From Verrucomicrobiales bacterium (GTDB taxonomy: Bacteria > Verrucomicrobiota > Verrucomicrobiia > Verrucomicrobiales > V1-33): a DNA stretch of 64,000 nucleotides. A program made the translations under genes and the position numbers. Shown here in pieces: positions 20,472 to 62,459 of the stretch. The notes under the pieces are model-generated. The model had not been told where the DNA came from, ran no database searches, and saw nothing but the letters and a program-made list of their open reading frames with translations. Positions within the stretch are counted from its first letter, which is position 1; each line of letters opens with the position of its first letter. The stretch is from NCBI GenBank assembly GCA_035550135.1, contig DASZQB010000131.1, positions 66,411 through 130,410 on the forward strand. The letters run 5' to 3'.

Positions 20472-20474
20472 ACC

Positions 20475-22502: not shown

Positions 22503-22509
22503 CAACGCC

Positions 22510-35645: not shown

Positions 35646-35891
35646 GGAAAAACAGGGACGGAACAGGAGTTTGGAAAGCCCGGTCCCGGTTCGGTGGGAA
35701 TAGTTGTTTCCCGAAGAAGCGTCAACATCAAAACGCCACGGGCACCCTTCAACTTACCTCCGGCGGAAACGGTCCCCGGTGTATTTCCATGCCACGATTC
35801 TCCGCCTGGAACTCCATAACGCGGACGATTTGAGGTTTGACACGACTGCGCAAATTTCATGCAATTCCAATGTTTTTCACTCATTGGACTC

Positions 35892-39941: not shown

Positions 39942-39965
39942 CAAGCGGCAAACGAATCGAATGAC

Positions 39966-40003
39966 CGGCCTGCCTCCGTACCCGGCGGCAGGCCGCTTTG
40001 TAC
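39966..40003 (+). terminator. Probable intrinsic terminator after the lectin/PA14 gene
   Basis: 9-bp perfect stem CGGCCTGCC (39966-39974) / GGCAGGCCG (39988-39996), followed by a weak T tract CTTTGT. Confidence 0.5.
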
Positions 40004-40152
40004 TCCTCCGGAACCGGCGTTTACAATTCTCCGCGAACTTTTCTTGTGCAGGCACGGTTTCTGCCTCTAAATGGGGCATTCAGAAATTCCATGCGCGTCC
40101 CCGGCACGGTTCTTCCTGTTGCTGTTCCGACTCTAGCTCTGATCTAACGAAT

Positions 40153-40842: not shown

Positions 40843-41093
40843 TTCAAGGGGCGGGATTTTTCGGAAAGTCATTCCGGTTTGCGGAGGAGGGATTGCCGCT
40901 CTTTTCCCGTAGAGACGTAGTCCCTTTCCGTCATGAAAGGCCGGTGATTCTGTTATGCTGCCTGTGCCTCAGCGGCACGGTCACGGCCGGAAATAATGAC
41001 CGTGAAGACTCGCGACAGCGGAACTTCACGAACCTCCCGTCGGCGTTTCCTCCGGGGCAGGTTTACTGAATGTGTAGTAATAAGACCCGGAGA

Positions 41094-41936
41094 TCAGGCC
41101 TTTCTGCGGCGGCGCATCAGCCCGGCGGCAGCGGCGAGAGCGAGGGAAACAGCGGCGGGTTCAGGGACGCTGACGCTGGCAGCGGCGGCGGCTTGAATTT
41201 CCGCAGCGGTCAGCACGGTATCATAGACACGGAGGCCGTCGATGCGCCCGCTCATCTGGTCGGAGTCATTGCCGCCGAGGCGGCCGCCAATCGTGAGCCG
41301 GGCTGCGGCCAGATCGTCCCCAAAAAGGCTGTTGTCGGCACCGCCGAGGAGATTGCCGTTTAAATAATAATTGATCGCGCCATTATTATAAGTGGCGGCG
41401 ATGTGCACCCAGTTTCCAGGAATGACCGCAAAGGGATCCGAATCGTTATCGAGCACGCCGTAGTTGGTGAACCGGATCGTGGAGGAACTTCCATCGGTTG
41501 TGGCAAGGCGAAGCGCGAGACCCCAGCCGCGGTCAGCTCCGGTGGCGCTTCCTGTCGAAATGGGCCGGTAGGAGCGCGCGGCGATGTCTCCGGCGGTCGG
41601 ATTCACCCATGACATAACGGTAAAAGCCCCGGTGCGCGGGATGTTCATGACCGGGTTGACATTGTCCGCGCCGCTGGTGAAAAAGCTGTCTGTGGTGCTC
41701 GGACCATAGCCAATGGAGGTGCCCACCGCATTGGTCACCGTGATGGCCCCGTAAACACCGTTTGGCACTCCCGCCTGTCCGTAAGCATTCGGCCCGATGG
41801 GTACCGCCGCAACATGCCCTCCGGTGGAGTCGATGAGGTTTCCGGAGGCTTCATCCTGATTCCATGAGGCGATCAGAGCAGCGCGGGCGGGCAGGCAGAA
41901 ACTCAGAAGAAGAAGCGGAAACGAAAGGGATTTCAT
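41094..41936 (-). CDS. PEP-CTERM protein with a LamG/concanavalin-like (Laminin_G_3) domain
   Basis: Signal peptide MKSLSFPLLLLSFCLPARA. NWVHIAATYNNGAINYYLNGNLLG and GRIDGLRVYDTVLTAAEI are LamG_3-type. The end reads SVSVPEPAAVSLALAAAAGLMRRRRKA. Confidence 0.85.
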   Translation of the reverse strand: MKSLSFPLLLLSFCLPARAALIASWNQDEASGNLIDSTGGHVAAVPIGPNAYGQAGVPNGVYGAITVTNAVGTSIGYGPSTTDSFFTSGADNVNPVMNIPRTGAFTVMSWVNPTAGDIAARSYRPISTGSATGADRGWGLALRLATTDGSSSTIRFTNYGVLDNDSDPFAVIPGNWVHIAATYNNGAINYYLNGNLLGGADNSLFGDDLAAARLTIGGRLGGNDSDQMSGRIDGLRVYDTVLTAAEIQAAAAASVSVPEPAAVSLALAAAAGLMRRRRKA

Positions 41937-42051
41937 CGAATTAAAAATGAGTGACGATCAAGCATTTACGAAATCAATTGGCGGGGCTCAATCCCAAAAT
42001 TTGATACAAATCGAATTTTTTCGCAGGTCCGGGAACTGATTGGTGGCCGGA

Positions 42052-42148
42052 GGTGCAAAATTCTGAAATTTTCCCGTGCCAAACGGCGGGAGATTGCCTA
42101 GTCTCGCCGCCCTTTAGGGAAAACTCCGATTCGCTGGTGCAAAATTCT
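42052..42148 (+). repeat. Two perfect 13-bp direct repeats GGTGCAAAATTCT upstream of the secretin gene
   Basis: Copies lie at 42052-42064 and 42136-42148, 84 bp apart start to start (about 8 helical turns), in an AT-richer leader. The function is unknown; they may be an operator or activator site. Confidence 0.5.
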
Positions 42149-42187
42149 TACTCATCTTCCAAACGGCCTTCCGGTTGCGTACTTCGA

Positions 42188-44677
42188 TTGCCTCAGCGCG
42201 GGGCGGTTGCGGGGGCGCTCTTACTTGGTTTATCGATGATGCCCGCGGCGCTGGCCGGGAGTGGCAAGGGTGATGAACCCCTGATCGTTTCCAAAGAGGT
42301 GGAGCGCCGGCTCAAAGCCAAAGATGAAGCTCAGCGGCTGGTGGCGGAGGGAGATGAACTCGCGGCTTCAGGAGATCAGTGCGGCGCGGCTGACAAGTAC
42401 TATGCAGCGGCGCAAATGCTTCGGCCCGGAGCGCCAGGGACCCTGCAGTTGCGCAACGAGGCGGTGAAAAAGTTCAGTGTATCGGGCGTGGCCTGTGCAA
42501 AGGAACAGGCGCATAATGGCGAGCATGAAAAGGCCTCGACGCGGGTGGAGCAGATCCTGGCGGATAACATGGCGCCCAGGGACAAGCCTGCGCTGGCACT
42601 GCAAAGGCATCTCAAGGACACGGACCGCTACAACCCCGCGTTGACGCCGAAGCATGTCGCGGATGTGAAAAAGGTGTCCAATTTGTTGATGATGGGAGAG
42701 CACTTCACGCAACTTGGCGATTATGATGCTGCGGAGAAATCCTACAATCAGGTGCTGGCCATCGATGCCACCAATACCGCAGCCCGTCGCGGACTGGAGG
42801 GGGTGGAAAGACTGATCACGAATTATTACAAGGCGGCGCGTGATCATACGCGGATAAAGATGCTCAACGACGTGGATCGCATCTGGGAGACCAAGGTGCC
42901 GTTTACCGGAGCGCGTCCCACCGGCATGGCCAACCCGGACGACGTCTATATTGGCGGCAGTGCGGTGGCTTCCAAGCTGCGCACGCTGATCATTCCGCAC
43001 GTCTCGTTTGCGGACGCATCACTGCCGGAGGTCGTTTCCTATCTGATCAAAAAGAGTATCGAAGTGGACCCGCAGGGACGCGGGGTGAATATCATTTGGA
43101 CGCCGGGGAACGGCGCTGCGACAAATCCGGTGACGCTGGAGTTGAGAAATGCCAGTCTTGGAGACGTGCTGCGCCAGGTGTGTCTGCTCAGCGGCACACG
43201 GTTTCAGACCGACGGCGGGCTCGTGAGGATCTCGGTGCAGGGCGGCAATGCCCTGGAGACGCGTCAGTTCAAGGTGCCGCCCGGATTTCTTTCCACGGCT
43301 GCCACGGCCGTCCCCGCGGAGGCGGCTGACCCTTTTGCAACCGGCGCGGCGGCAGCGGACAAGCCGAAGCTGGGCCGCCTCGACCCGAAGACGTTTCTTG
43401 AGCAGCAGGGTGTCGAGTTTCCCGCTGGATCGAGGGCCGGTTACAATGCGTCGCAAAATCTCCTGACCGTGACCAACACCTCGGAGAACCTGGACGCCAT
43501 CGCCACGCTTGTGGAAACGCTGACCACCTCCGGACAAAAGCAGGTGCTGGTTCAGATCGTGCTTCTCAAGTGCAGCCAGACGAATTTTGAGGAGCTGGGT
43601 TTTGATGTCTTCATGGACGCGTTCAAGGCGGGCGGAGGCGTTTTTGCGGAAGGCGGCACTTTTGGAAATTCCCCGGATTTCAGCCAGGGAGGCACATCCA
43701 CCGGCAACTTCGGCAATACCACGTTCGCGCCTCTCAACGTTCCCTTCAATGTGGTGAACGGTCCGATGACCGCCGGCTTGCGCAGTTCATACGAGCTCAC
43801 CCGCACGCAGACGATCGATGACCTCATCAATCTGGCGAACGGCATCAATCCAGTCCAGCCAGGACGGAGTCCGTACAATTTTGCAATCGGGGGGATATTC
43901 ACCAATCCGCGTTTTCAGGCGCTCTTCCGCGGGCTCAGCCAGAAGAAGGGAATCGACCTTTCCGTGGCCACGAAGACCATTGTGAAGAGCGGCCAGAAAG
44001 CCTCCGCGTTCTCCGGACGGAAGTTTCTGTATCCCACTGAATTCGATCCGCCGCAGATCCCGCAGACCATCCGGCGGAATCAGATTATCCTGTTCGACGA
44101 CCAAGGATTTCCCTTCATCGTCGATCTTCCGAATGATCAGGCGCCGGTGACACCAGCCACGCCCAGTTCGTTCCAGGAAAAGGACATCGGCTCCAGCGTC
44201 GAAGTGGAGGCGAACATTGCCGAGGACAACTATACGGTGGACCTGAACCTCGCCGTCGGTTTCACCGAGTTTGATGGATTTATCAACTACGGCACGCCGA
44301 TCATGACGGACAATGGCGTGGTCCTGACAGACAACCGCATCATTCAGCCGGTCTTCTCCAAAGTGGCTGCGAATACGCAGGTGCAGATTTACGACGGTCA
44401 AACCGTCGCGATTGGCGGCCTGTCCACAGCCAAGGTTGAAACGATTGAGGACAAAGTGCCGATCTTCGGGAGCATCCCCATCATCGGCAGACTCTTTAAG
44501 AGCAACCTGCAGCGCCACACGCGCACTGCGGTGGTCTATTTCGTCACGGTCAAGATTGTGGATCCCGCCGGCGAGGGCGTTCACGGAAGCAAGGTGCTTG
44601 AGGCCGCCGCCTCCGCGGGCGTGAACGTTTCCGATCTTTCCGGGTCCGATTCCATTCTGCTTCCGCCTCCCCAGTAA
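42188..44677 (+). CDS. Secretin-family outer-membrane channel (type II/III secretion system protein family) with a TPR-like N-terminal region
   Basis: C-terminal secretin domain (PF00263): VQIYDGQTVAIGGLSTAKVETIEDKVPIFGSIPIIGRLFKSNLQRHTRTAVVYFVTVKIV. N0/STN-like module: VTLELRNASLGDVLRQVCLLSGTRFQTDGGLVRI. TPR-like helices lie upstream of it. The start is uncertain. TTG 42188 gives the signal peptide (M)PQRGAVAGALLLGLSMMPAALAG; the track start GTG 42053 lies inside the direct repeat. Confidence 0.85.
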   Translation: MPQRGAVAGALLLGLSMMPAALAGSGKGDEPLIVSKEVERRLKAKDEAQRLVAEGDELAASGDQCGAADKYYAAAQMLRPGAPGTLQLRNEAVKKFSVSGVACAKEQAHNGEHEKASTRVEQILADNMAPRDKPALALQRHLKDTDRYNPALTPKHVADVKKVSNLLMMGEHFTQLGDYDAAEKSYNQVLAIDATNTAARRGLEGVERLITNYYKAARDHTRIKMLNDVDRIWETKVPFTGARPTGMANPDDVYIGGSAVASKLRTLIIPHVSFADASLPEVVSYLIKKSIEVDPQGRGVNIIWTPGNGAATNPVTLELRNASLGDVLRQVCLLSGTRFQTDGGLVRISVQGGNALETRQFKVPPGFLSTAATAVPAEAADPFATGAAAADKPKLGRLDPKTFLEQQGVEFPAGSRAGYNASQNLLTVTNTSENLDAIATLVETLTTSGQKQVLVQIVLLKCSQTNFEELGFDVFMDAFKAGGGVFAEGGTFGNSPDFSQGGTSTGNFGNTTFAPLNVPFNVVNGPMTAGLRSSYELTRTQTIDDLINLANGINPVQPGRSPYNFAIGGIFTNPRFQALFRGLSQKKGIDLSVATKTIVKSGQKASAFSGRKFLYPTEFDPPQIPQTIRRNQIILFDDQGFPFIVDLPNDQAPVTPATPSSFQEKDIGSSVEVEANIAEDNYTVDLNLAVGFTEFDGFINYGTPIMTDNGVVLTDNRIIQPVFSKVAANTQVQIYDGQTVAIGGLSTAKVETIEDKVPIFGSIPIIGRLFKSNLQRHTRTAVVYFVTVKIVDPAGEGVHGSKVLEAAASAGVNVSDLSGSDSILLPPPQ

Positions 44678-48838: not shown

Positions 48839-51800
48839 TCATTTTGATCGTTTGTCAGGATACACCGGGGCGGAGGGAACGGGGCGGGGGTCTTTGGCGA
48901 TGAGGTCCTGGAGGTGTTTGAGGGCGGCGTCGAGCTGGGCATCGCCGCCTTTGAAGGTGGAGACGGGGAGGTTGTCCACGATGATGTCAGGGTCCACGCC
49001 GTGACCTTCGATGAGCCATTTGCCTTCGGGACCGAAGACGCCGATCTCGGCGGCGGAGGCGATGCCTTTGTCTGCGAGTTCGTTTTCGAAGCTGAGCCAA
49101 ATCTCGCCGCCCCAGGTGCGGGTGCCGATCACTTTGCCGATGCCGAGACGTTTGACGCCTTCGCTGAAGGCCTCCCCGTCGGAGGCGGTGAACTCATCGC
49201 ACAAAACGCAGACGTGGCCGCGGAAGGCGTATTGCATATTCCATTCGGGGTTACCGGTGCGGGGCTGCCAATACATCCATGCCTTGCGCAGAAGCCGGCC
49301 AATGAGCCAACTGTCGATGTTGCCGCCGCGGTTATGACGCACGTCGATGATGAGACCCTGACGATTGTAAACGGGATAAAATTCGCGCGCCCATGCGGCC
49401 ATGTCCTGTTCCTGCATGGCGCGCAGGTGGACATAGCCGATATTGCCTTTGCCGTCGGCCTCCACTTTGAGGCGTCGCGTGTATTCCCACTCGCTGTAGC
49501 GAAGATTCGCGGCGGCGCGGAAGGGTACAGGGCGCACAATAGTTTCGCGTGCCGGATCTGCGCCGGTTTTCAATGTCAGGAGCACCTGCTTGCCATCCAT
49601 TCGCCGGAGAGCGGCGCCATAGTGCGGCAATTGAGAGAAGGGCTGGCCGTTGATGGCGGTGATGAGATCGCCTTCGCGCACGCCGGCCTCCGGTTTTGCC
49701 AGAGGCGCGAGGAGGGCGGGGAAGTCGGGATCAGTTTTGGGGATGTGCGTCACTTTCCATCCGCCGGCGGCCGGATCGGCGTCAAGGCGAGCGCCGAGGG
49801 AGGCAGTGTCAATATCGTCAGGGCCGCTGCGGGCATCACCATCGCGGACGAAAATGTGCAGCGCGGAAAGCTCGCCGACCATTTCGGACATGAGGTCCGC
49901 GAGTTCCTGACGGTCCGCCACGCGGTCCACGAGCGGCAGGTATTTTTTCCGGACGGCCTCCCAGTCGAGCGCGTGCATTTTGGCATCGTAGAACCAGTCG
50001 CGCATGAGCCGCCATGAGTCGGTGAACATCTGACGCCATTCGTCGCGCGGATTGATGGAAAAGGCCCAGTTGTCGAGCTGCACTTTGGCTTCGTCGAGTT
50101 TGTCCGCGTCGCCGGAGGCATCCAGAACGTAGAGGGCATTCTCCTTTCTCACTAACAATTTTTTGCCATCGGCGGAGAAGTCGTAGCCCTTGATATCCTC
50201 CACCATGTTTTTTGCTTTCGGCTTTTCGTTAGTGATCTTCAAACGCTGGAGGTGCCTTTTTGCCTTGAAGTCGGTTTCGCCGCGCACCCAGAAGAGGAAT
50301 TCCCCCTTTGCGCTGAGCGCGCTGTAGTTGCCGGCTTCGACGGGCACTTCGTAGAGGCGGGTGGTTAGGCCGTCGGCTTCCACTTTTACTTCGGTGGAAG
50401 AAGCCTTGTCCTCTTTCTTTTCATCCTTCTTCTCCTCTTTCTTCGAGTCGTCGTCTTTTTTGGGCCTGTGCAGTTCGTCGGCAGGCAGGAAGGGCCAGCG
50501 CTCCGATTTTGTCAAGCCCACGGCAAAAATCTTCGTGACCTGATCAAAAAAGGGCTCCGGCTGGCGGGGACCCCATGGGCTTTCGACAAGGGTGCGCAGT
50601 TCGCGGTCGGAAAGGAAGTAGAGCCATTTTCCGTCAGGCGACCATGCGGGACTGTAACTTTCCACGCGATCGCTGGTAACGGTGAGGCGCGCGTTGTCGC
50701 TGACGCGCTGGATAAAGATCTGGCGCACGGTATTCGCGGCGGGCTGCACCCATGCGATCCATGCGCTGTCCGGCGACCACGCAAGGCCTTCGAATTCTCC
50801 CGCCGGGCTTTTGGCGAGAACAGCGGTCGTCTTTTTGTCGGCGCTCCAGAGGAGCAACTGACGGTCGCGGTCGTGGAAGAGAATCCATTTTCCATCCGGT
50901 GAAGGCAGGCCTTCATAACGATAATTCGTGCCGCCGCTGGTAAGCGCCTGCGGAGTGCCGGAGCCGTTGGCGGGATATTGCCAGAACTCCAGTTCGCCGG
51001 AGGCATCGCTGAGAGCGACAATCGATTTTCCGTCCGGCAGGAAGCGTCCGTAGCGGCTGCGCACGCCAGCATTGCGCGAGACTTCGACGAACCTCCCGTC
51101 CTTCACCGGAGCGACAAACAACTGCCCGCGCGCAGTGAGCACCACGCGGTCGCCGTCCGGTGAGAGGTTTGCGGCGGTGAGATAATCCATGGGTTTGGAA
51201 ACCCATTTCTCACGCTGGTGATCGGCGTCGGTCGCGAGAGTAATGGGAATCCGGGCGGACTGGCCGTTCGTCAGGTCGAGGCGGTGGAGATCCGCGCCGA
51301 GTTGATAGACGACGGTATTGCCGGAGATGGCGGGGGATTTTACGTCGTAGTCTTTGTGCTGCGTGTGCTGGGTTAGTTCCTTGCCGTCCGGCAGCATGGA
51401 CCAAAGGTTCATGATGCCGTCGCGATCTGTCAGGAAAACGACGCGCTCGCCCCACCAGAGCGGAGAACGGCTGGTGCCCGGGAAGTCCGGCGTGACGGGT
51501 ACCGCTTCCGGCTGTCCGGTGGACCATCGCCAGAGGTTCTGCGCGGTGCCGCCCTGGTAGCGCTTGGTGCTGCTGCCCTGGAAGGCGAAGCGTGTGAAGA
51601 CAAGCGTTTGGCCCTGGGCATTCCACGCGCCGTCGCTGGCCTGAGACAGTGGCACGGGCTGCAGGCCGGTGCCGTCGGTGGCGATGCTGAGAAGTTGGTA
51701 GTCCGGCAAACCGGCCATGAGACGCGTGGCGAAGAGGATGCGTCCGTCCGGAGTCCAGCCGGTGAAAGCGGGCTGAGCAGTCTCCCATGTAAGGCGGCGC

Positions 51801-52093
51801 GGTCTTCCTCCTTCCGCGGGCATGACGTAAAGTTCCGCGGGGCCTTCATATTCTCCGGAAAAGGCGACCCATTTGCCATCGCGGGAAATCGAGGCGCGCG
51901 TTTCCGCACCGGGATGCGTGGTCAGGCGCTGCGCTGCACCGCCTGCAAGGGACACGCGCCAGAGGTCGCCCTCCGCGGTGAAGATGACGGTTTCACTATG
52001 GATGGCAGGATAGCGGTAATAGCCTGCGGGTCCCTGCGCCAGCAGGGCGGAAGAGAGGGAGAGGAAGACGGTGAGAGCGGATACCGGTTTCAT
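48839..52093 (-). CDS. Tricorn protease homolog (S41 family; beta-propellers, PDZ and C-terminal peptidase)
   Basis: Signal peptide MKPVSALTVFLSLSSALLAQG. YRYPAIHSETVIFTAEGDLWRVSLAGGAAQRLTTHPGAETRASISRDGKWVAFSGEYEGPAELYVM is a typical tricorn N-terminus. TolB-like repeats follow, then a PDZ-like segment (GDLITAINGQPF) and the S41 core (IDVRHNRGGN...CDEFTASDGEAF). Confidence 0.9.
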   Translation of the reverse strand: MKPVSALTVFLSLSSALLAQGPAGYYRYPAIHSETVIFTAEGDLWRVSLAGGAAQRLTTHPGAETRASISRDGKWVAFSGEYEGPAELYVMPAEGGRPRRLTWETAQPAFTGWTPDGRILFATRLMAGLPDYQLLSIATDGTGLQPVPLSQASDGAWNAQGQTLVFTRFAFQGSSTKRYQGGTAQNLWRWSTGQPEAVPVTPDFPGTSRSPLWWGERVVFLTDRDGIMNLWSMLPDGKELTQHTQHKDYDVKSPAISGNTVVYQLGADLHRLDLTNGQSARIPITLATDADHQREKWVSKPMDYLTAANLSPDGDRVVLTARGQLFVAPVKDGRFVEVSRNAGVRSRYGRFLPDGKSIVALSDASGELEFWQYPANGSGTPQALTSGGTNYRYEGLPSPDGKWILFHDRDRQLLLWSADKKTTAVLAKSPAGEFEGLAWSPDSAWIAWVQPAANTVRQIFIQRVSDNARLTVTSDRVESYSPAWSPDGKWLYFLSDRELRTLVESPWGPRQPEPFFDQVTKIFAVGLTKSERWPFLPADELHRPKKDDDSKKEEKKDEKKEDKASSTEVKVEADGLTTRLYEVPVEAGNYSALSAKGEFLFWVRGETDFKAKRHLQRLKITNEKPKAKNMVEDIKGYDFSADGKKLLVRKENALYVLDASGDADKLDEAKVQLDNWAFSINPRDEWRQMFTDSWRLMRDWFYDAKMHALDWEAVRKKYLPLVDRVADRQELADLMSEMVGELSALHIFVRDGDARSGPDDIDTASLGARLDADPAAGGWKVTHIPKTDPDFPALLAPLAKPEAGVREGDLITAINGQPFSQLPHYGAALRRMDGKQVLLTLKTGADPARETIVRPVPFRAAANLRYSEWEYTRRLKVEADGKGNIGYVHLRAMQEQDMAAWAREFYPVYNRQGLIIDVRHNRGGNIDSWLIGRLLRKAWMYWQPRTGNPEWNMQYAFRGHVCVLCDEFTASDGEAFSEGVKRLGIGKVIGTRTWGGEIWLSFENELADKGIASAAEIGVFGPEGKWLIEGHGVDPDIIVDNLPVSTFKGGDAQLDAALKHLQDLIAKDPRPVPSAPVYPDKRSK

Positions 52094-52838: not shown

Positions 52839-53063
52839 ATGACAAAAACTCTGGAAGAACGCGTGGCTGCCCTTGAAAAGGAGTTGGCTGAAATGAAAGC
52901 ACGGCCCTGGTTGTCACCGCCGATGAGCAAAGACTGGATGAGTACGGTGGGATGGGCCGCGGAAAGCGATGTACATGACGCTGCGGCCCTTGCGGGAGAG
53001 GATTATCGTCGCAATCAAACTTACGAAAAAGAGCTCGAAACACGTGGTGGTTCTGGACACTAA
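52839..53063 (+). CDS. Putative antitoxin of a VapBC-like pair (family not recognised)
   Basis: 74-aa ORF whose 3' end overlaps the PIN gene by 20 nt. The N-terminal helix is TLEERVAALEKELAEMK. I could not recognise an AbrB, RHH, Phd or MerR motif. Confidence 0.55.
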   Translation: MTKTLEERVAALEKELAEMKARPWLSPPMSKDWMSTVGWAAESDVHDAAALAGEDYRRNQTYEKELETRGGSGH

Positions 53064-53460
53064 TCATCTGACCGTCTTAACGAAAGGTGGCCCGCGAGCT
53101 CAGCGGTTGGTCGCCAGACTTGAGAAGTCGACCCAGGAGGTGGTGACCAGTGTGGTTTGTGTAGAAGAGAGGATACAGGGATGGATTTCTGAAATCCGCC
53201 GGAGGGACCTTTGGGGACAGGTGGAGGCCTATCGTGAATTCAGCCAATTGATTGAAACGTATGCCCGGTGGATATTGCTTCCCTGGGATGAGGAAGCCGC
53301 TAATCTCTTTGTGAAGTTTCGTGCGGCGGGAGTTCGCATTGGCACGATGGACCTGAAGATTGCGTGTATTACAATCACGCATGATGCACTGTTGCTGACT
53401 CAAAACGCCGCCGATTTTGCGAAAGTGCCCGGTCTGCGTTCTGAGGACTGGCTGGAGTAG
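53044..53460 (+). CDS. vapC: Type II toxin VapC (PIN-domain ribonuclease)
   Basis: 138 aa from GTG 53044: VVVLDTNHL (Asp 1), CVEERIQG (Glu), GTMDLKIACI (Asp), LLTQNAADF, in the PF01850 order. The track ORF 52969 extends upstream into the antitoxin gene. Confidence 0.8.
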   Translation: MVVLDTNHLTVLTKGGPRAQRLVARLEKSTQEVVTSVVCVEERIQGWISEIRRRDLWGQVEAYREFSQLIETYARWILLPWDEEAANLFVKFRAAGVRIGTMDLKIACITITHDALLLTQNAADFAKVPGLRSEDWLE

Positions 53461-53499: not shown

Positions 53500-56400
53500 T
53501 CACGGCAGGGTGACCATGAGGCGGATGTAGAGGTGCTGGCCGGCGGGGATGCTGATGGGGGCGCGGTAACGGAGGGTGAGAGTCCCGTCGGGATTGGGGG
53601 TGCTGGAGACCTGGGTCAGGGTGGAGGTCCAGGCGGTGAGAGTGGAGGAGAGTTGCGGGGTGACGGTGCCTGCCGGGAGGCCGGTGGGGAGGCGGAATTC
53701 GACGGTGAGGAATCTGTCAGGGCCAATGGTGGTGACGCTGGCGGAGGGGAGGAGAGCGGAGGCGTCCGGGCGTTTGGGGTCGCCGGCGAGGGCGTATTCG
53801 AGGCGGTTGTTGAGGCCGTCGAAATCGGGGTCGGCGTCGGGGCCGGAGATGAGGTTATCGGCGGCGCTGGCGGGGCCCCAGAGGAGGTTGCGCCATTGTT
53901 GATAGGTCCATGGAATGTTAGTGCCACCGGGGCCGATGAGGCCGCCGGGCCATGCGGAGGCGGTCCAACTGGCCGGGAGGTTGTGATCCGGATTCGTCGC
54001 GGGCGCGATGAGGAGGAGGGACGGACCATTGCCGTCGGCGCGCCCGGGCCACGGCGGGAGATCGCTGTAGGTGAAGTCTTTAATGACGTCCGGCAGCGTG
54101 TCTGCATCCACGCCGTCGGGGCCGGTGAGGACAAGCTGTTCGCCGCCGTTGCCAAGGCCGCCGGTGAACTCACCGGCAATCATCGCATTGTATCCGGTTC
54201 CGTGGCGGAACTCGAAGGCATCGCGGCGGCGGATGAGGAGAATGCTCTGGCCGGGATTGAGAGCGATGACACTGCTTTGGGTATTGAAGTCAAAGCTGAG
54301 TCCGACGGTGAACTTCACATCCTGGAGATTTACGGGCGCGCTGCCGATGGCCATGAGGCGGATGAACTCGAAATCGTCCGCATTGTTGAAGGTGGCGGCC
54401 TCTTCCACGGCGCTGGCGTCGGGCGGATGATACATGATTTCCGCCACGACGAGGTTTGCGGCGGTGGCGGGAACCGCATTCACCAGATACGTGGCTTCGG
54501 TCAGGGCGCTCCACTCGTTGTTCGTGCTGTTGCGCGAGCGAGCTCTGATCGTGGTGATCTGTGTGAGCGGGACGGGCGCGCTGTAAGTGGCTGCCGCGGG
54601 ATTGACCGCGCCGCCGGCGAGGCGAGGGTCGCTGCCGTCTGTGGTATAATAAATGGTTACCCCGCCCGGGACGTTGCCGACACTGCCGGTCATGGTGACG
54701 GTGCTGCCTGCGGTCACGGCACCGCCGAAAGGCGTCAGGACGGGCGGCTCTGTTTCCGGACAGAAGGTGTCAGCGGTATTGTAAGTTCCGTTAGGCGCCC
54801 GCAGGTGGCCGGGAGTGTAGCCCGCGACGCCTTTGGTGCCTTTGGGCAGGATGACGGTGCGCCGCCCCGTTGAAGGATTTACCCAGATGTCGAACCACGC
54901 GGTGCGCAGCGCCTGGCCCGTATTGTATTGCACCAGGGGACCGGCTTCGGCCACGAGTTCGTCGAGCCGCGTTTTGAGTCTGCTCTTCAGCGGACCTGCA
55001 CTGTCGGGATCGCGGTCATCGAGCACGCCGCCGTTGAACATGGCGCGATTCACACGGTCCGCGAACTTGAGACGCCATTCGGCATTGGTGCGCAGGCGCG
55101 CGAAGATGCGCGAGAGGTCGGAGTTGCCGTCGCGGCCAGTGAGGTCGAGCGCGATGGTGTTATAGTTGTGATCCTTGAGGACATTCGTGACGTAATCGGT
55201 GTGGTAGGAATTGATGAGACACGCGCCCTCCAGGTCCCATGTGGTGTAGCGGAAGCGTCCGTCCGGGCCGTTGCTGCGTTCGCGGTAGAAGACGTAGTTG
55301 TTCCACGGCCAGTCCCACATGGAGGTGTAGATATTGAAGAGATAATAGTCCGCGAAATTGTCGAGATCCGCCACCGCCTGCACGACTGTCCAGTAGCTGG
55401 CGCTGGCGGTATTGTTGATGACATTGTTGAAATTGTTCCACGATGTTACGTTTTGGTTTGCGACCTCGTTAGGCAAGCCGTCCACCCATTCGTTGACGTA
55501 GCGCACCTCCCAGATGTTTTCGCTGCGGTAGTGCTGTTGGAAGAGCGGCTCGCGCACGCGCTCGGCGAGGTTATAGACGCCCTTATAGACGCCGTTGAAG
55601 TACACTGAGCACACAAGTCCGCGCGGTGAGACGTGGCCCATGTCGCCAAACACGCGGCGGAGCATTTCATCGCTGATATGCGGGTTCCCGATGTCATTCT
55701 TGCCCGCGCGCAGGCGCAGGCTTTGGAACTTCCGCACGTCGTAGCCGGGGAAGAGCGGGTAGTCGAGTTCACCCGCACCGAAATCACCGCGAAAGAAGAT
55801 GTTCCATGAACACTTTTCGTTAGGGTTCCATGGATCGAACGGTGAGAGGCCCGTATTGCTCATGGTCAGCCGCGGACGGCTGTAAGGGCTCGAAGACAGC
55901 CGGAGGCCGAAGTCCATGTTGAGCGGCTGCTGGCCGGGATCGGCATAATAACCGGGAGGGAAATAGAATTCCATGAGGGTTTCCCGCTCGAAGGCCTGGC
56001 CGCGGCCCACGGGGATGTTGTAGCTGTTAGGCCCCGCAGGATTCCAGATATCCGCCGCGGTGCCGTTGAGTCCGTAGCCGCCGCCCTGGATGGAGAGCAG
56101 ACCCTCCGGTTTGTAGAAGGTGCGTCCGGCATCGCCGGTGAACAGAAGAGCGGGCACGCCGGAAATTGCGGCATCCTGATTGATAAGATACGTCTCCGTC
56201 TTTACGCCGCTGGGGAGCATGCCGGACGCGAACGTGCGGGCACGGACGACGTTGGCGGTTCTGCCGTTGGGGCGCGTGAGGCTCAGTGGCGCTGTGTATT
56301 GAGTGCCGTTCGTTTCCGTGGGCGTGGAGCCGTCGAGGGTATAGCGGATGGTCGAGCCGGGAGTGATCGTGGTGAGGACAAGAGTTTGGTTTGCCGTGTA

Positions 56401-59400
56401 GCGTCCCCCGGTAAGCGGTGTGGTGCCATTGGCGGCCATGAACTGCGGCGGTTCAGCGCGTGCTGCCATACTGTCGCCGGCGTTGGCCGTGCCAGGAGTG
56501 CCGGTGGTGAGAAAGCCCCACACGCTGCTGTTAGGCGGCGTGCGGCCCCAGGTGCTGGAGAAGACCTGACTGGGTACGGGCAGAGGTACTTCGTCCATGG
56601 GAGCGAGCGCGGCGTTAAACAGCGCGAGACGCTCGCCAGTGTCGCTCAGCGTGAAATTTGCGTGCAGCCGCTGCGCGGGACCGGCGGGAGCATTCGCCTC
56701 CTCGCGGTCATCGCACATCACGATGAGATAACCGCCGGCGGGGATGGACGTGTTAGTCGGGAAGCGCCATTTGCCCGGTTGCGACAAGGGTTCATCCGTT
56801 AGGGCCCAGTTGCTGAGGTCCACGGGGGAACCGCCATTATTATACAGTTCGACCCAGTCCGTGAATGCCGAGGGCTCTTCGAAATCCGCCTCTTCGCCAA
56901 CGGGCGGATTGAACGTTGTCGTCGCGAGGCCCGGGTCTGCGACGCCGCCGGAGGGTTCGTAGCGGCCTACGAATTGTTTCCATGCGCCGCCCGCGCTGCC
57001 TGAAGCGAAGATGTCACGAATTTGCGAAGGATCGCTGCCGGTGAAAGTGATCTCGAAGTTGTCCAGCGTGATGCTGCTGCCTGCGGCCCAGTCCGCGGTC
57101 CTGTAGAACGTTGGGACGAACGAGACGCTGCCGGCGCCGTTAAGCGTGTTGTTGAAACGGCTGCCCGGTTGATTGCCGGCGCCGAGATTGATTGAGTAAA
57201 GCTGCCACGGGATGATCTCGAAATCGTCCAGCCGGATGCGCGTGCCGCTGGCGAGACTCGCGGAGCTGAACTGCATGGTGAAACTGCGCGAGTTTTGCGC
57301 GTTCATGCTGGTGATGAAGGCGGCAAGATTTCCCGCAGTGGAAAACTCGCGCGTCACCACCTGCCATGTGCCTGTGCCCGTGATGGTGCCGAAGTCCGCG
57401 CGATTGTTATAACCCGCTGTCGGCTGCGGCTCGGCCCACACGCTGCACGTTTCGCCCGCTGGCACGTTCACCGCAAACCGCATGGTCACGAGTCCGACGT
57501 TCTGTGGTGTCAGAGAACCCGGCGTCCACTGCTGTGCGGAGAATCCGGGAATCGTGAATCCCGAATAGCCTGGCTGCGGCGTGCCGGTGGCGGTGATTTC
57601 ATAACGCAAATGACCGGCGGTGCCGCCATTGCCCGCGCCCGCAGTGTTGTCCTGCACGAGCCGCGAGGTGAAGCCGTTGCCCGCGCCGTCCGCCCAGATG
57701 TAAGTTGTCACCGGCGGCGCACCGGACGTGGTGTTAGTGGAGGTGCTGCCGTTGCAGGCCACCTGCACGTAGCCGTTGTTCGCGTTCGAAAACGTGATGG
57801 GCGGCGCCTCGCTGCTGGCGGCGGCGGATTCGATCCAGAAATTCACATCGTCGATCTGAAGAAGATTGCCTGTTTGATAGGAGGCAATGCCATCCACATT
57901 CGCGACAACGAACTGCTGCGTCTTCGGCGCATGGCCGTTCATGGCCGTCAGATAACCCGCGGTGTTGGTGCCCGTGCTGAGAGCGCGCTCGGTGGTTTCC
58001 CAATTGCCGGTGCCGGTGAAGGTGCCGAAGTCCACGCGCGCGCCGTAGCCGTCACTAACCATCGGTTCGAGGCGAAGATTCAGTCGTCTGCCCGCAGGGA
58101 TTTTCCAGCGGAAGGAAAACTTTGCCGACGTTAGATCAGCGGCTGCGAGGTTCGAGCGGCCCGCCCATTCCGTGGCGGTGAGGCCGCCGTTTTGCAGACC
58201 GAATCCCCACCATTCATTTGAAGTGCCCGCGGCGCGGGTGGGCATGGTGATCCAGTCGAGGGCGAGCACGCCGTTGGTTCCGCCGCCGGGGGAGGGAATG
58301 GCGGCGTCCTCTTTCACGACGAACTGGCCGCTCCGCAGGTCAGTAGTGGAGAAGCCGAACCAGCCGTAGGCGGGTGAGCCCGCCGTGACGCCGCTGCCGG
58401 CGCCCGTGGCGCTGATGTTCCATGTCAGCGTCTGATTCGCAGCGGCGGGCCATGTCAGGTCCGGCGGCGGAGCGGGCGGCGCGCCGACGGCCGGGAATCC
58501 ATCGAGGACGTTCGTCGCGTCCGCGATTGTTGGCTGAAGGCGGAGGCCCATTTGCGCGCCGCCGGTGGTGCGATAGCGAAAGCGCAGGGTGGTGCCGCTG
58601 AGCGCGTTGGCATTCACGCTGCCGGTGGCCCAGCCCCCAGTCATGGAGACGCCAGGTCCAAAGTGCGTCCATGCGGAAACCGCGCCAGTTTGGGTGAAGT
58701 CGAACTTCAGTCCGCCACTGCCGCCAATACCGGCCGCGGCGCTTTCCGTGACAACATTCGTCAGGGAGCCGGAGGCGGTGCTGGCGGGATCGGATGCCAT
58801 CGTCGCGAGCCAGCCGTTAGGAGCATTGGTGCCGGAGGCTGTGTCGCTCTGCGCACCCGCGTTGTTTGTGTGCGTGCGGCTGGCACCGGTGCCATTGTTG
58901 AAATCAAGACTCTTCGCCGTGAGGTTTGCGGTGGGTCCGACAAACCGGAGTCCCGCATTGATGCTGAATGTCGGCGTTTGGCCGGTCCAGTTTTGATTGC
59001 CGGAAGTGGGTGGTGTATTGGAATTCGCCGCCTGGATGGCGATGAGGTTTTCGCCGGTGACCAACAGCGTGTTCGCGGGGCCGATCACGTATTCCTGAAG
59101 TCCGGTGCGCGTTTCCGGATTATAGGCGGCCTGGTCGGCATACACGAAATGCTTCGCCGGACCCATGTTGGCGCGAGCCACCTCTTTGCCATTGATCCAG
59201 CAAATGAAACCGTCATTCGCCTCCACCAGCAGAGAGAGCGGCTGCGTGCTGCCTGCATCCGCGGCGGTGATGGTGAACAGCTTTCGCAGGTAGAATGTGG
59301 GCGTCCTGCCTTGCATGGTGGCCGCCAGATTCGTCTGCAATCCCCCGACGCCATAGCCCGCCGGGAGATTGCCGGATGTCCACGCGGCATCGTTGTAAGC

Positions 59401-59598
59401 GGATTCATAGAATGCTGCTCCCGTTCCCAGTCGCGGCTGGCCTGTCGCAGCGTCCCACGTGAGTTGCCGGTCGCTGGGATTGGCCATGAATTCATTGATG
59501 ACCACGCCACTCCATGCTGTCGTTAGGGTAGAGTGCAAAATAAGCAGCGCGGCGAGGCGGCAAATTGGAAGCCGCCAACCGTATTGAGTCGGGTGCAT
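53500..59598 (-). CDS. Giant secreted CotH-kinase-family protein with lamin-tail-domain modules and Fn3/chitobiase-C-like modules
   Basis: Signal-like segment ...CRLAALLILHSTLTTAWSG. LTD patterns: VVINEFMANPSD (N-terminus), FTDWVELYNNGGSPVDLSNWALTD (~56560-56960), VVAEIMYHPPD...DDFEFIRLMAIGSAPVNLQDVKF (~54130-54480). CotH (PF08757)-like core at ~54860-56200 (FQSLRLRAGKNDIGNPHISDEMLRRVFGDMG...VYFNGVYKGVYNLAERV). IRYTLDGSTPT and IYYTTDGSDP motifs. The C-terminus carries DPDFDGLNNRLEYALAGDP. Confidence 0.85.
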   Translation of the reverse strand: MHPTQYGWRLPICRLAALLILHSTLTTAWSGVVINEFMANPSDRQLTWDAATGQPRLGTGAAFYESAYNDAAWTSGNLPAGYGVGGLQTNLAATMQGRTPTFYLRKLFTITAADAGSTQPLSLLVEANDGFICWINGKEVARANMGPAKHFVYADQAAYNPETRTGLQEYVIGPANTLLVTGENLIAIQAANSNTPPTSGNQNWTGQTPTFSINAGLRFVGPTANLTAKSLDFNNGTGASRTHTNNAGAQSDTASGTNAPNGWLATMASDPASTASGSLTNVVTESAAAGIGGSGGLKFDFTQTGAVSAWTHFGPGVSMTGGWATGSVNANALSGTTLRFRYRTTGGAQMGLRLQPTIADATNVLDGFPAVGAPPAPPPDLTWPAAANQTLTWNISATGAGSGVTAGSPAYGWFGFSTTDLRSGQFVVKEDAAIPSPGGGTNGVLALDWITMPTRAAGTSNEWWGFGLQNGGLTATEWAGRSNLAAADLTSAKFSFRWKIPAGRRLNLRLEPMVSDGYGARVDFGTFTGTGNWETTERALSTGTNTAGYLTAMNGHAPKTQQFVVANVDGIASYQTGNLLQIDDVNFWIESAAASSEAPPITFSNANNGYVQVACNGSTSTNTTSGAPPVTTYIWADGAGNGFTSRLVQDNTAGAGNGGTAGHLRYEITATGTPQPGYSGFTIPGFSAQQWTPGSLTPQNVGLVTMRFAVNVPAGETCSVWAEPQPTAGYNNRADFGTITGTGTWQVVTREFSTAGNLAAFITSMNAQNSRSFTMQFSSASLASGTRIRLDDFEIIPWQLYSINLGAGNQPGSRFNNTLNGAGSVSFVPTFYRTADWAAGSSITLDNFEITFTGSDPSQIRDIFASGSAGGAWKQFVGRYEPSGGVADPGLATTTFNPPVGEEADFEEPSAFTDWVELYNNGGSPVDLSNWALTDEPLSQPGKWRFPTNTSIPAGGYLIVMCDDREEANAPAGPAQRLHANFTLSDTGERLALFNAALAPMDEVPLPVPSQVFSSTWGRTPPNSSVWGFLTTGTPGTANAGDSMAARAEPPQFMAANGTTPLTGGRYTANQTLVLTTITPGSTIRYTLDGSTPTETNGTQYTAPLSLTRPNGRTANVVRARTFASGMLPSGVKTETYLINQDAAISGVPALLFTGDAGRTFYKPEGLLSIQGGGYGLNGTAADIWNPAGPNSYNIPVGRGQAFERETLMEFYFPPGYYADPGQQPLNMDFGLRLSSSPYSRPRLTMSNTGLSPFDPWNPNEKCSWNIFFRGDFGAGELDYPLFPGYDVRKFQSLRLRAGKNDIGNPHISDEMLRRVFGDMGHVSPRGLVCSVYFNGVYKGVYNLAERVREPLFQQHYRSENIWEVRYVNEWVDGLPNEVANQNVTSWNNFNNVINNTASASYWTVVQAVADLDNFADYYLFNIYTSMWDWPWNNYVFYRERSNGPDGRFRYTTWDLEGACLINSYHTDYVTNVLKDHNYNTIALDLTGRDGNSDLSRIFARLRTNAEWRLKFADRVNRAMFNGGVLDDRDPDSAGPLKSRLKTRLDELVAEAGPLVQYNTGQALRTAWFDIWVNPSTGRRTVILPKGTKGVAGYTPGHLRAPNGTYNTADTFCPETEPPVLTPFGGAVTAGSTVTMTGSVGNVPGGVTIYYTTDGSDPRLAGGAVNPAAATYSAPVPLTQITTIRARSRNSTNNEWSALTEATYLVNAVPATAANLVVAEIMYHPPDASAVEEAATFNNADDFEFIRLMAIGSAPVNLQDVKFTVGLSFDFNTQSSVIALNPGQSILLIRRRDAFEFRHGTGYNAMIAGEFTGGLGNGGEQLVLTGPDGVDADTLPDVIKDFTYSDLPPWPGRADGNGPSLLLIAPATNPDHNLPASWTASAWPGGLIGPGGTNIPWTYQQWRNLLWGPASAADNLISGPDADPDFDGLNNRLEYALAGDPKRPDASALLPSASVTTIGPDRFLTVEFRLPTGLPAGTVTPQLSSTLTAWTSTLTQVSSTPNPDGTLTLRYRAPISIPAGQHLYIRLMVTLP

Positions 59599-59699
59599 TG
59601 GTGCTGTTGCTGCGAAGGCTAAGGGACCCGGACAAGGAGGGGCCTCAATGATACCTGGAGGACGCTGGCAATGTCACGCTGAATTGCACGATCCGGAGG

Positions 59700-62459
59700 T
59701 TATCCCTGGGGGACGCCGGCGGCTTTGCCGACTTCACGGCGAAGAGTTGTTAGGATCGCGGGATCGGTAATCTTTTGTCCGTGGGCGTCGGTTACACAGA
59801 AAGAATCCACGGCGGCGCCTTTTTCGGTATTGATGCGGGCGTGGGTGATCTCCATGCCGAGGCTGCCTATGGCATTGAAGATGGCGTAGAGGAGGCCGAT
59901 GCGGTCCACGGCCTGAATCTCAACGGTTGTGTAGTCACGCTTCGGCTCATTGTGGACGCCGGCGAAGACCGGAAAGTCATCGGTCCAGCCGGGAACGGAA
60001 GCGGCCGTGCCGTTGTCCTGGCTGCGGATGAGGCCGGCAAAGTCGATCTCTTCGCCGGTGCATGCGCAGGCCAGGAGTTCACTCACGGTACCGATGGTTT
60101 TTTCCGACGTGACGGGAGTGAGGCTGGTGGTGCAGACGCGGAAGAGGTCGATGACGATGCCGTCCGCGCGGAGGAAGAGGTCGGCGCTGAGGATATTGAG
60201 GCCGGCGGCGGCGAGCGCTCCGGCGGCTTTGGCGAGCAGGAGGTGGCGGTCCCACGAGATGAGAATGAGTTCGCTGGTACCCTGCTCCGGATGCGTGACC
60301 CAGCGGAGCACCGGGCGCAAAAAACTCCCAGCATCCTCTTTCCGAATCTGACGGAAAAATTGCCGGCAGGTGCGGATGTGCATGGTGATGTCGTCTGCGC
60401 CGCGGAAGTTGAAATAGCGCGGGGGCATGCCGCTGAGGTGGGCGTCGATCTCCGCGGCGTAGCTGTCGTCGAGTTCGGCGGCGATGGTTTTGCGCAGCTT
60501 CTCGAACGGAATGTTCATGTGGCTCTGGAAGGCTTCGCGGCCTTCGAAATAAGCGAGTGTGGCATGATAGAGCTGCCGCACGAGGCTTTCCTTCCAGTCC
60601 GTCCAACCGGTTTCGTTAGTGGCGCGGCTGTCGGCGCAGGTGTGAAGATAGAGGGCCTCCAGCCATTCCCGGGTGCGGACGATGCGGGCGAAGCCGGCGA
60701 TGACTTCGGGATCGTCGAGGTTGCGGGTGGTGGCGGTGTGCCAGAGGAGGAGATGGTTATCGACGAGGAAGAGGAGTGTTTGGCGGCGCTTGTCCGTGAT
60801 TTGCAGGCGGCGGCACACCTGATCGGTTAGTTCTGTGCTGGCATATTCGTGATGCTTGCCGCCGTCGGCGCGGCCGGTATCGTGCATCAGGAGCGCGAGA
60901 TAGAGGATGAAAGGATCTTCGAGTTCGTGAAAGAGGCGCTGGTGGAAGGCGAGCCGGGGATCGCGGGTATCACTAAGCTCATCGAGGCGTTCGAGGCATT
61001 TCAACGTGTGTTCGTCCGCGGTGTAGCGATGAAAAAACTCATGCTGCACGAGGTCGGTGAGGGGAGCGAATTCCGGAATGTAGCGGCCCAAAAATCCCAC
61101 GCGATGCATCTGTCGCAGCGCGGCGCCGACCTCGCCCTTGCGGCTGAGGATGGCTTCCCATGTCTCGCGATTCGTCTTCTTATAACGGAACGTGCGGTTG
61201 ATGAGCTTGTAGTTATCCTTCACGAGGCGGCGCATCTGCGGACTGAGCTTGAGCTGCCGGACCTGCGTGTGCTGGAAGAGGCGAATGAGGCGGCCAGAGT
61301 CCTCCTGGAAGATGTCGGGCTCGTTAGGGAAAATGAATCCGTCGCGGGTGTGGAAACCATCGAAGACTTCACTTTTGTTCTTTTTTTGGAGGGCGAGGAA
61401 ACTGAAGATGCCGGGCTTCTTTTCCTCCTGCTCGAGTTCGAAGCGCTCCATGAGCGAGAGGTTGTGCTGATAGAGATGGCGCGAGTGATGATAGTAGTCG
61501 CGCATGAAGGTCTCAGTGCGCTGCACCATGCGGCGGCCTTCGTAACCCAGACTGGTGGCGACGACGCCCTGGAGACGCAGCGTGAGGAGATCGTTGGCGC
61601 TCTTTTCGGAGTAGTGCATGTCATTGCGCACGCGGAGGAGAAAAGCGTGCGCCTTCTGGATTTCCTGGCCGGCGGTTTCCGAAAAGATGCGGCGGCGGAC
61701 GAGCTGGTCGAGATCGCGGATGCCGAGCTTCACGAAGCTGATCCACACCATATTGTGATAGTCGCGCAGGCCGCCGCAGCCGTTTTTGACATGCGGCTCC
61801 TGGAGGTGGAAGGTATTAGAGGACTTGGCGTGCCGCTCGCGGAGGTCTTTGACGCGCGCGAGGAAGAATTCCCGCTCGCGACCGGTGACGCACTGGCGGC
61901 GGAAGTTGTCCTCAAACTCATCGAAAAGGGTGCGGTCCCCGGTAATGAAGCGGCTCTCGATGAGGGCGCACATGGTTTGGTGGTCCTTTTGCGCGAACTG
62001 AAAGGTTTCCTTCAGGGAGCGCACGCCATAGCCGACTTTGAAACCGACATCCCACAGCATGTAGAGGACTTTTTCGATGACCTCGCGGGTTTTTGCCGAC
62101 AGGTCCTTCCCGCCGCGTTCAGGGTGGATGAACTGAATGTCCACGTCGCTGCCGGGATTGAGGATGCCGCGGCCGTATCCGCCACTGGCGACGAGGGCGA
62201 CGCGGGCGGCGGCGGCGGACTCCTGGAGGGCGCGGTCGAAGAGGTTGCGCAGGACCACGTCGAGCAGGCTGCTGCGCTGCCGGCATACTTCGATGCCGCT
62301 GAGGCCTGCGTAATGCTGGAGGCGGATGCGGTATTCCTCTTTTTTGAGGAAGCTCTTGTAGAGCTTGATGAGATCGGCGGGAGAGGCGTTTTGGTCGTGG
62401 GCGGGAGCCAGCACGCGGCTGGCGTGGGCTTCCACTTTTTCGATGTGACGCCTTGGCAT
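59700..62459 (-). CDS. glnD: [Protein-PII] uridylyltransferase / uridylyl-removing enzyme
   Basis: Nucleotidyltransferase motif VASGGYGRGILNPGSDVD. HD domain FHRYTADEHTL...LLMHDTGR. Two C-terminal ACT-like domains. 919 aa. Confidence 0.9.
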   Translation of the reverse strand: MPRRHIEKVEAHASRVLAPAHDQNASPADLIKLYKSFLKKEEYRIRLQHYAGLSGIEVCRQRSSLLDVVLRNLFDRALQESAAAARVALVASGGYGRGILNPGSDVDIQFIHPERGGKDLSAKTREVIEKVLYMLWDVGFKVGYGVRSLKETFQFAQKDHQTMCALIESRFITGDRTLFDEFEDNFRRQCVTGREREFFLARVKDLRERHAKSSNTFHLQEPHVKNGCGGLRDYHNMVWISFVKLGIRDLDQLVRRRIFSETAGQEIQKAHAFLLRVRNDMHYSEKSANDLLTLRLQGVVATSLGYEGRRMVQRTETFMRDYYHHSRHLYQHNLSLMERFELEQEEKKPGIFSFLALQKKNKSEVFDGFHTRDGFIFPNEPDIFQEDSGRLIRLFQHTQVRQLKLSPQMRRLVKDNYKLINRTFRYKKTNRETWEAILSRKGEVGAALRQMHRVGFLGRYIPEFAPLTDLVQHEFFHRYTADEHTLKCLERLDELSDTRDPRLAFHQRLFHELEDPFILYLALLMHDTGRADGGKHHEYASTELTDQVCRRLQITDKRRQTLLFLVDNHLLLWHTATTRNLDDPEVIAGFARIVRTREWLEALYLHTCADSRATNETGWTDWKESLVRQLYHATLAYFEGREAFQSHMNIPFEKLRKTIAAELDDSYAAEIDAHLSGMPPRYFNFRGADDITMHIRTCRQFFRQIRKEDAGSFLRPVLRWVTHPEQGTSELILISWDRHLLLAKAAGALAAAGLNILSADLFLRADGIVIDLFRVCTTSLTPVTSEKTIGTVSELLACACTGEEIDFAGLIRSQDNGTAASVPGWTDDFPVFAGVHNEPKRDYTTVEIQAVDRIGLLYAIFNAIGSLGMEITHARINTEKGAAVDSFCVTDAHGQKITDPAILTTLRREVGKAAGVPQG

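Follow-up and report, generated by a model that had tools for sequence, protein, structure and literature searches.

A CotH-Family Protein Encoded in a Verrucomicrobiales Contig

The window analysed in this work is a stretch of 64,000 nucleotides from a Verrucomicrobiales bacterium (contig DASZQB010000131.1, positions 66,411 to 130,410 of the forward strand; assembly GCA_035550135.1), and attention was focused on a gene located on its minus strand at 53500..59598, stop codon included. The list of open reading frames (ORFs), the translation and the Pfam search indicated that this gene encodes a multidomain CotH-family protein of 2032 amino acids (aa), predicted to be exported, which starts with ATG and is read in an uninterrupted frame. 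The first-pass annotation, made from the sequence alone, had pointed to such a 2032-aa CotH protein, and this observation was confirmed. Coordinates refer to the window and features lie on the minus strand unless stated otherwise.

The first 30 residues (59509..59598) constitute the sole strongly hydrophobic stretch of the protein and were assigned as a signal peptide, MHPTQYGWRLPICRLAALLILHSTLTTAWSG|VVINEF, on the basis of hydrophobicity, comparison with the orthologue P0013 and the leader present in the family consensus. P0013 is 2029 aa long, 74% identical and collinear over the full length, and its signal peptide, canonical and of a very different sequence, ends right before the same VVINEF. 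The family consensus sequence likewise starts with a leader of about 23 aa. Inspection of the sequence revealed no lipobox and no second transmembrane segment, no hydrophobic segment was found at the C-terminal end, and no Pfam or NCBIfam model for PEP-CTERM or type IX secretion system (T9SS) sorting signals matched the tail. Given this signal peptide and the lack of a further hydrophobic segment, of a lipobox and of a sorting signal, the protein is predicted to be exported by Sec.

The Pfam analysis of the whole protein identified four families, all above their curated cutoffs: LTD (E 1.2e-21, 77.6 bits), CHB_HEX_C_1 (E 1.7e-21) and Fn3_assoc (E 4.5e-21), each matching in two stretches, and CotH (PF08757; E 1.5e-18), the last one with 67.8 bits against a cutoff of 23.8 at aa 1282-1517, spanning positions 30-261 of the 322 in the profile. 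Both PF08757 and PF00932, the families in which the CotH and LTD assignments of the first-pass annotation could be checked, were thus matched above threshold. The positions of the modules were determined by a Pfam scan of the protein cut into nine pieces, in which no match was detected in the first 870 and the last 140 residues.

In the order of the protein sequence, the first LTD module was located at aa 908-998 (56605..56877; PF00932, E 1.5e-13, 51.5 bits), followed by a CHB_HEX_C_1/Fn3_assoc module at aa 1063-1137 (56188..56412; PF13290, E 2e-14; PF13287, E 1.2e-13), which holds the motif IRYTLDGSTPT. The CotH kinase-fold domain encompasses aa 1140-1585 (54844..56181), with the Pfam envelope at aa 1282-1517, and was delimited using Pfam, AlphaFold, Foldseek, profile alignment and conservation. 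The CotH core had previously been placed at 54860-56200 (aa ~1133-1579), in agreement with the conserved and well-modelled core at aa 1140-~1585. The second CHB_HEX_C_1/Fn3_assoc module, holding IYYTTDGSDP, was found at aa ~1643-1695 (54514..54672; PF13287, E 2.1e-10; PF13290, E 1.4e-9), and both copies individually exceeded the cutoff. The second LTD module, at aa ~1730-1835 (54094..54411), corresponds to the second stretch of the whole-protein LTD match; taken alone, it scored 22.6 bits, below the cutoff, and a BLASTP alignment joined it to the first LTD module with E 0.002.

The proposed fusion of CotH with LTD and chitobiase-C/Fn3-like motifs was therefore upheld with respect to CotH, LTD and both motifs, which lie inside the CHB_HEX_C_1/Fn3_assoc modules, but not with respect to the number of LTD modules, of which at least three had been claimed and two were found. 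The N-terminal domain was considered as the third one in view of its LTD-like VVINEF start, yet it has no LTD profile similarity (hhalign probability of 0.06%) and was rejected.

Fold and Active Site of the CotH Domain

PDB searches with the single sequence and with a narrow profile (alignment A1) did not find CotH. With a profile alignment of 20 diverse family members (A2), Bacillus cereus CotH (5JD9/5JDA, of which 5JDA is the complex with Mg2+/AMP) ranked first among the PDB entries, at a marginal E value of 0.019. The alignment of A2 to 5JD9 crosses the catalytic core and sets 'DWPxNN...WDxEG' opposite 'FDGFVHNY...WDYDATWG' of B. cereus. The putative catalytic residues D1429 and N1434, from the motif WDWPWNN, align to B. 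cereus D224 and N229, and D1455, from WDLEG, aligns to D247 of WDYD and is the putative metal-binding Asp, equivalent to that of DFG. Since the spacing of 23 residues between Asp224 and Asp247 in B. cereus is identical to that between D228 and D251 in B. subtilis, the residues of the two Bacillus proteins were considered equivalent. The B. subtilis CotH mutants D228Q and D251A are catalytically dead (PMC7821199).

An AlphaFold model calculated on an alignment of 11 sequences was unusable (pLDDT 46). The AlphaFold2 model of the CotH core on A2 reached a mean pLDDT of 76.4 and a pTM of 0.81, and its comparison with the PDB by Foldseek placed B. cereus CotH (5JDA/5JD9) first, with E 5e-12, a probability of 1.00 and a TM score of 0.68 normalised to CotH. 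The matches that followed were other atypical kinases, namely CtkA, PI4K/PI3K and HipA. The identity in the structural alignment with CotH was 13%. As modelled, the domain adopts the CotH atypical-kinase fold, and the modelling that the first-pass annotation had called for thus led to B. cereus CotH as the top match.

Conservation of individual residues was counted over 242 homologues with an average identity of about 35-40%. D1429 and N1434 were each kept in 235 of 237 homologues and D1455 in 235 of 236. Similar values were obtained for K1262 (235/238), R1297 (239/239) and E1311 (236/240), which are situated in or beside predicted strands and a helix and could not be mapped onto CotH. As the N-lobe could not be aligned to that of the solved CotH, the Lys and Glu proposed for ATP binding are only candidates, in effect guesses. 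The alignments reveal the retention of the catalytic-loop Asp/Asn and of the metal-binding Asp, with D1429 and D1455 as the equivalents of B. subtilis Asp228 and Asp251; a domain that had lost its catalytic residues, an outcome that would have refuted the initial assignment, was not what was found.

These data also bear on the possibility that the CotH domain serves in binding and not in catalysis, and that the whole protein is an adhesin or a structural surface protein. Such a role would suit a protein composed mostly of beta-sandwich modules and exported to a compartment with no obvious supply of ATP. It also has precedents, as the CotH proteins of Mucorales are receptors for host GRP78 (PMC9973265) and a structural role has also been considered for cellulosomal CotH proteins (PMC12484212). 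However, the equivalents of the catalytic and metal-binding Asp/Asn are near-invariant among homologues as divergent as those counted above, and the CotH domain is the best-conserved region in the comparison with P0013, with 86% identity versus 47-83% for the other modules and 74% overall. Such a pattern is expected of an active site and not of a binding surface, and a purely non-catalytic role is considered unlikely.

Distribution and Architecture of the Family

An exhaustive HMMER search with the CotH core over 1.84 billion cluster representatives yielded 5637 clusters at E<=1e-3, 1833 at E<=1e-10 and 273 at E<=1e-30. Most proteins of the best 150 clusters had a length of 1000-3800 aa, and among the 160 family proteins retrieved, 111 were longer than 1000 aa. 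Thirty relatives were sampled evenly from these best 150 clusters, and every one of them combined LTD, CHB_HEX_C_1, Fn3_assoc and CotH; some had additional modules (Laminin_G_3, PA14, GLEYA, CBM_2 or dockerin). Relatives are already named 'CotH kinase family protein' by NCBI. A search of a protein database for homologues returned the same 12 mostly fragmentary proteins with the single sequence and with the profile.

Reference genomes were scanned, one for each species, and 358 relatives were confirmed. Of these, the best 80 came almost exclusively from Verrucomicrobiota, including Limisphaerales, Verrucomicrobiales, Akkermansiaceae and Chthoniobacterales, often with several copies per genome. 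The CotH-bearing ORFs at the related loci were 815-2097 aa long. The nearest relative in the reference genomes was about 50% identical, and an exact-peptide scan of genome contigs detected no close relative. The relative encoded by the culturable strain IMCC26134 (CP011265, locus L007) had 48% identity. The description of the genome as a non-sporulating type is in line with this distribution, Verrucomicrobiota being a lineage not known to form endospores. In several metagenome-assembled genomes (MAGs) of Verrucomicrobiota, paralogues were noticed on separate contigs (loci L014/L026, L028/L032, L019/L078 and L023/L068). The presence of two or more paralogues per genome indicates an expansion of the family within genomes.

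The great length of the ORF, its T/G/A-biased middle region and the tandem repeats described below could raise the suspicion of a decaying or chimeric ORF, a pseudogene or an assembly artefact. Nevertheless, the 2032 codons are uninterrupted, and the domain order is kept in all 30 sampled relatives. The 2029-aa orthologue is collinear at 74% identity and four more relatives are collinear with the protein at full length, by which such an origin is effectively refuted.

The set of modules common to the 30 relatives, together with the large size of an already annotated family, does not support the earlier implication that the architecture is unusual. Within this Verrucomicrobiota family, which is large and has already been annotated, the protein is an ordinary member. 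What is new here is small and consists of the family-level description for Verrucomicrobiota and of three unannotated modules, i.e., the N-terminal domain, a repeat of about 200 aa and the C-terminal tail, which could usefully become domain models.

Modules without Pfam Models

The N-terminal conserved domain, comprising aa 31-225 (58924..59508), has no Pfam model and was delimited on the basis of its coverage in the family and weak profile matches. It was covered in about 72-76 of 80 related proteins. Its profile weakly matched the sugar-binding jelly roll found at the N-terminus of GH2 beta-galactosidases (5DMY/6QUB, E 0.017), and in some family members this region gave weak Pfam matches to BetaGal_ABD2 and CBM-like families. 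These matches are suggestive, but not conclusive, of a galactose-binding-like jelly roll.

The family core consists of two parts, aa ~28-225 and aa ~860-2032, as revealed by the comparison with the CotH-bearing ORFs of 80 related loci, and the basic family form of about 1350 aa is devoid of aa ~225-860. In the protein studied here, an insert variable between lineages occupies aa 235-815 (57154..58896), where internal alignment and an iterated HMM search identified three tandem copies of an unannotated module of about 200 aa (aa 235-392, 385-600 and 605-815), followed by a remnant at aa 812-859. The alignment of copies 2 and 3 had a z score of about 25 against shuffles, and all three copies were recovered by the iterated HMM search. 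With the same approach, the module was detected in 44 of 241 family proteins, with 2-6 copies in each. It had no significant Pfam or PDB match, with sub-threshold hints of SGBP_B_XBD and CBM_4_9. Its kinship with the N-terminal domain was examined and rejected on comparison. The protein would represent a long form that has acquired this extra module in three copies. The module is itself a candidate for a new domain family. The T/G/A/N-rich repeated modules reported in the first-pass annotation correspond to tandem repeats in a T/G/A-rich region and can now be specified as these three copies.

The C-terminal tail, aa ~1926-2032 (53503..53823), was defined with a family tail HMM and comprises a TSP3-like motif (DPDFDGLNNRLEYALAGDP) and about 85 aa ending with ...YIRLMVTLP. 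The general form of the tail, about 110 aa long with a TSP3-like DxDGDGxxNxxEY at the start and ...F/YxRLxxxxP at the end, is kept across the family. Neither Pfam nor NCBIfam contains a model for it. The HMM, built from the family tails and covering 111 positions, matched the CotH protein with E 1e-31 and a 1115-aa LTD protein encoded at 32298..35645 with E 1.5e-11, and no third protein within the window was matched. The tail previously described as shared is thus real, being common to these two proteins. The second of them, also encoded on the minus strand, is exported and has a single LTD as well as a weak match to TSP3_bac. An assignment of the tail to the Amuc_1099 family, hinted at by NCBIfam with E 0.033, was judged not significant. 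In a large protein database, the tail matched only short unannotated fragments, a few of them with Laminin_G_3 or Big_3_5 (PF16640). The tail might serve as a shared anchoring or sorting domain.

Putative Function of the Protein

The protein belongs to a family of paralogues that extends over the phylum and has a fixed core architecture, which comprises, in the N-terminal part, a signal peptide, a jelly-roll-like domain and optional lectin-like modules, followed by LTD, CHB_HEX_C, CotH, CHB_HEX_C, LTD and a TSP3-like/beta-rich tail. The protein is probably an exported phosphotransferase, surface-associated or extracellular, with a competent CotH domain placed on its target by beta-sandwich modules. 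A nucleotide would donate the phosphate, and the acceptor would be a protein or glycan on the cell surface or on an external polymer, with the CotH domain positioned by the flanking beta-sandwich modules. The export signal, the fold, the conservation of the active site and the architecture of the family are what the analysis shows, and the enzymatic activity, carbohydrate-directed targeting and location are what we infer.

Several observations weigh against such a function. The main difficulty is the phosphate donor, which is left unexplained, since neither the periplasm nor the cell exterior is expected to contain ATP. The final location of the protein may be the periplasm, the outer membrane/surface or the medium as a secreted protein. 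The sequence profile match to 5JD9 was marginal (E 0.019), an N-lobe profile used by itself had no match in the PDB and the N-lobe could not be aligned to the solved CotH by sequence. The assignment of the flanking modules to carbohydrate-binding folds is based on sub-threshold matches (E 0.017 to 0.0008). Finally, no identified neighbouring gene, including those for GlnD, a PIN-domain protein and an S41 protease, was conserved across 80 related loci, so that neither a substrate nor a partner is suggested at the operon level. The adhesin-like scaffold proposed in the first-pass annotation is in turn a conjecture, as the flanking modules match carbohydrate-binding folds weakly.

A different chemistry or a different acceptor, such as the phosphorylation of a polysaccharide of the Fam20B/POMK type, the use of a non-ATP donor, e.g., polyphosphate, or a nucleotidyl transfer, was also considered. 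Carbohydrate-binding-like modules are present in this protein and in its relatives (the GH2-like N-terminal domain, a weak match, as well as CHB_HEX_C, Laminin_G_3, PA14 and CBM_2), and the subfamily is far from the spore CotH, as reflected by the 13% identity in the structural alignment and by the N-lobe profile with no PDB match. CotH was discovered through its distant similarity to the Fam20 secretory kinases, a group that includes a xylose kinase. Moreover, cotH-like genes adjoin a polyphosphate polymerase gene in Gram-positive pel loci, also in non-sporulating streptococci (PMC7112168). On the other hand, every CotH enzyme characterised so far is a Ser/Thr protein kinase (PMC7821199), no gene for polyphosphate or glycan synthesis was detected in the annotated part of the window or conserved beside the relatives, and nothing in the sequence identifies the acceptor. 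Such a chemistry is conceivable but doubtful, and an exported phosphotransferase using a nucleotide donor is still preferred.

An extended version of the proposed function may be put forward as speculation, and an improbable one: the family, found throughout Verrucomicrobiota, could represent an extracellular phosphotransferase with glycans or surface polymers as its substrates, a bacterial counterpart of the sugar and protein kinases of the secretory pathway. Unannotated carbohydrate-binding-like modules would then target it, and its export or anchoring would depend on the C-terminal domain of about 110 aa, not recognised before and shared with other giant surface proteins.

The notion that an extracellular kinase-fold domain is functionally unexplained was correct, but the role of CotH-fold kinases outside spores is an already recognised question that did not emerge from this locus. 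What the locus contributes is a clear picture of one conserved architecture. Exported multidomain CotH proteins number in the thousands and occur in cellulosomes, at the stalk loci of iron oxidisers and in Verrucomicrobiota, none of them with a known substrate or donor. The strong constraint on the CotH active site argues for real enzymology outside the cytoplasm. The locus itself gives no clue to the substrate beyond that provided by the family-level analysis.

Comparison with Known CotH Proteins

This protein shares with the CotH of Bacillus the predicted atypical kinase fold, the Asp/Asn of the catalytic loop and the metal-binding Asp. However, the latter is a single-domain protein of about 360 aa, which is found in the mother-cell cytoplasm and the spore coat and acts on CotB/CotG, whereas the present protein has 2032 aa and nine further modules, is predicted to be exported by Sec, belongs to a lineage not known for endospores and has no CotB/CotG-like neighbour.

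A resemblance in domain content is seen in the cellulosome of Clostridium thermocellum, where CseP/Cthe_0044 has the composition CotH-dockerin and Cthe_0239 that of LTD-LTD-Fn3-CotH-dockerin (PMC6083626, PMC4711584). The role of cellulosomal CotH proteins, both in C. thermocellum and in anaerobic fungi, has been described as unclear (PMC12484212). These are also extracellular multidomain proteins joining CotH with LTD and Fn3-type modules, but they are anchored by dockerin-cohesin interactions in Gram-positive cellulosomes. The protein described here lacks a dockerin, has the symmetric order LTD-CHB-CotH-CHB-LTD and a diderm host, and possesses an N-terminal domain and a C-terminal tail specific for its family.

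Sfz6 of stalk-forming Zetaproteobacteria, with a length of 1415-2270 aa, combines SH3 and CotH, and the domains adjacent to CotH are presumed to determine its function (PMC8250860). It is likewise a giant CotH-containing protein of a non-sporulating Gram-negative bacterium, but its accessory domains are of the SH3 type, CotH is located at its C-terminus and its gene belongs to a stalk-formation cluster, whereas the gene studied here has no conserved neighbours. The CotH2/CotH3 invasins of Mucorales are also CotH-domain proteins with signal peptides and are displayed on the surface; they differ in being eukaryotic, mostly single-domain ligands of host GRP78, some of them predicted to be GPI-anchored (PMC9973265). 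Nothing in the present protein points to a host-receptor role.

Genomic Context

The cotH-family gene is located 101 bp downstream of glnD (59700..62459, same strand). A match to a sigma-70-like promoter, GTGACA-18-TATCAT, with 10 of 12 consensus positions, was found within this gap, at 59648..59677 on the minus strand; it was detected by a consensus scan only and is weak. Directly downstream and on the opposite strand lies a stand-alone PIN-domain gene (52969..53460, plus strand), and beyond it a gene on the minus strand (48839..52093) encoding a tricorn-like S41 protease of 1084 aa with a PD40 beta-propeller and a PDZ domain. No linkage to a cotB/cotG-like gene for a serine-rich substrate was found at the locus, nor was any neighbour conserved across the 80 related loci. 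The clusters of neighbouring ORFs that appeared to be conserved at these loci were mostly overlapping shadow ORFs inside the CotH gene itself and were discarded. One cluster of neighbouring ORFs of ~480-700 aa, with no identity assigned, was present at 16 of the 80 loci.

A surface/export gene cluster is located at 35859..44677, about 9 kb from the CotH gene. It contains genes encoding a 1360-aa protein with Lectin_C and PA14 (35859..39941), a PEP-CTERM protein (39961..40842), whose gene is separate from that of the CotH protein, a Laminin_G_3 protein (41094..41936) and a secretin (42053..44677). The product of another giant gene, at 26200..32223 on the minus strand, is 2007 aa long and has a Hanks-type Ser/Thr kinase domain at its N-terminus (Pkinase, E 1e-39); the approximately 1700 residues that come after it matched nothing in Pfam. 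The G+C content was 0.63-0.65, with a negative GC skew, at 18001..24000 and 28001..30000, and about 0.58-0.60 elsewhere. These high-G+C regions cover a fatty-acid beta-oxidation cluster (AMP-binding, ECH/3HCDH and acyl-CoA dehydrogenase) as well as a portion of the gene for the giant kinase.

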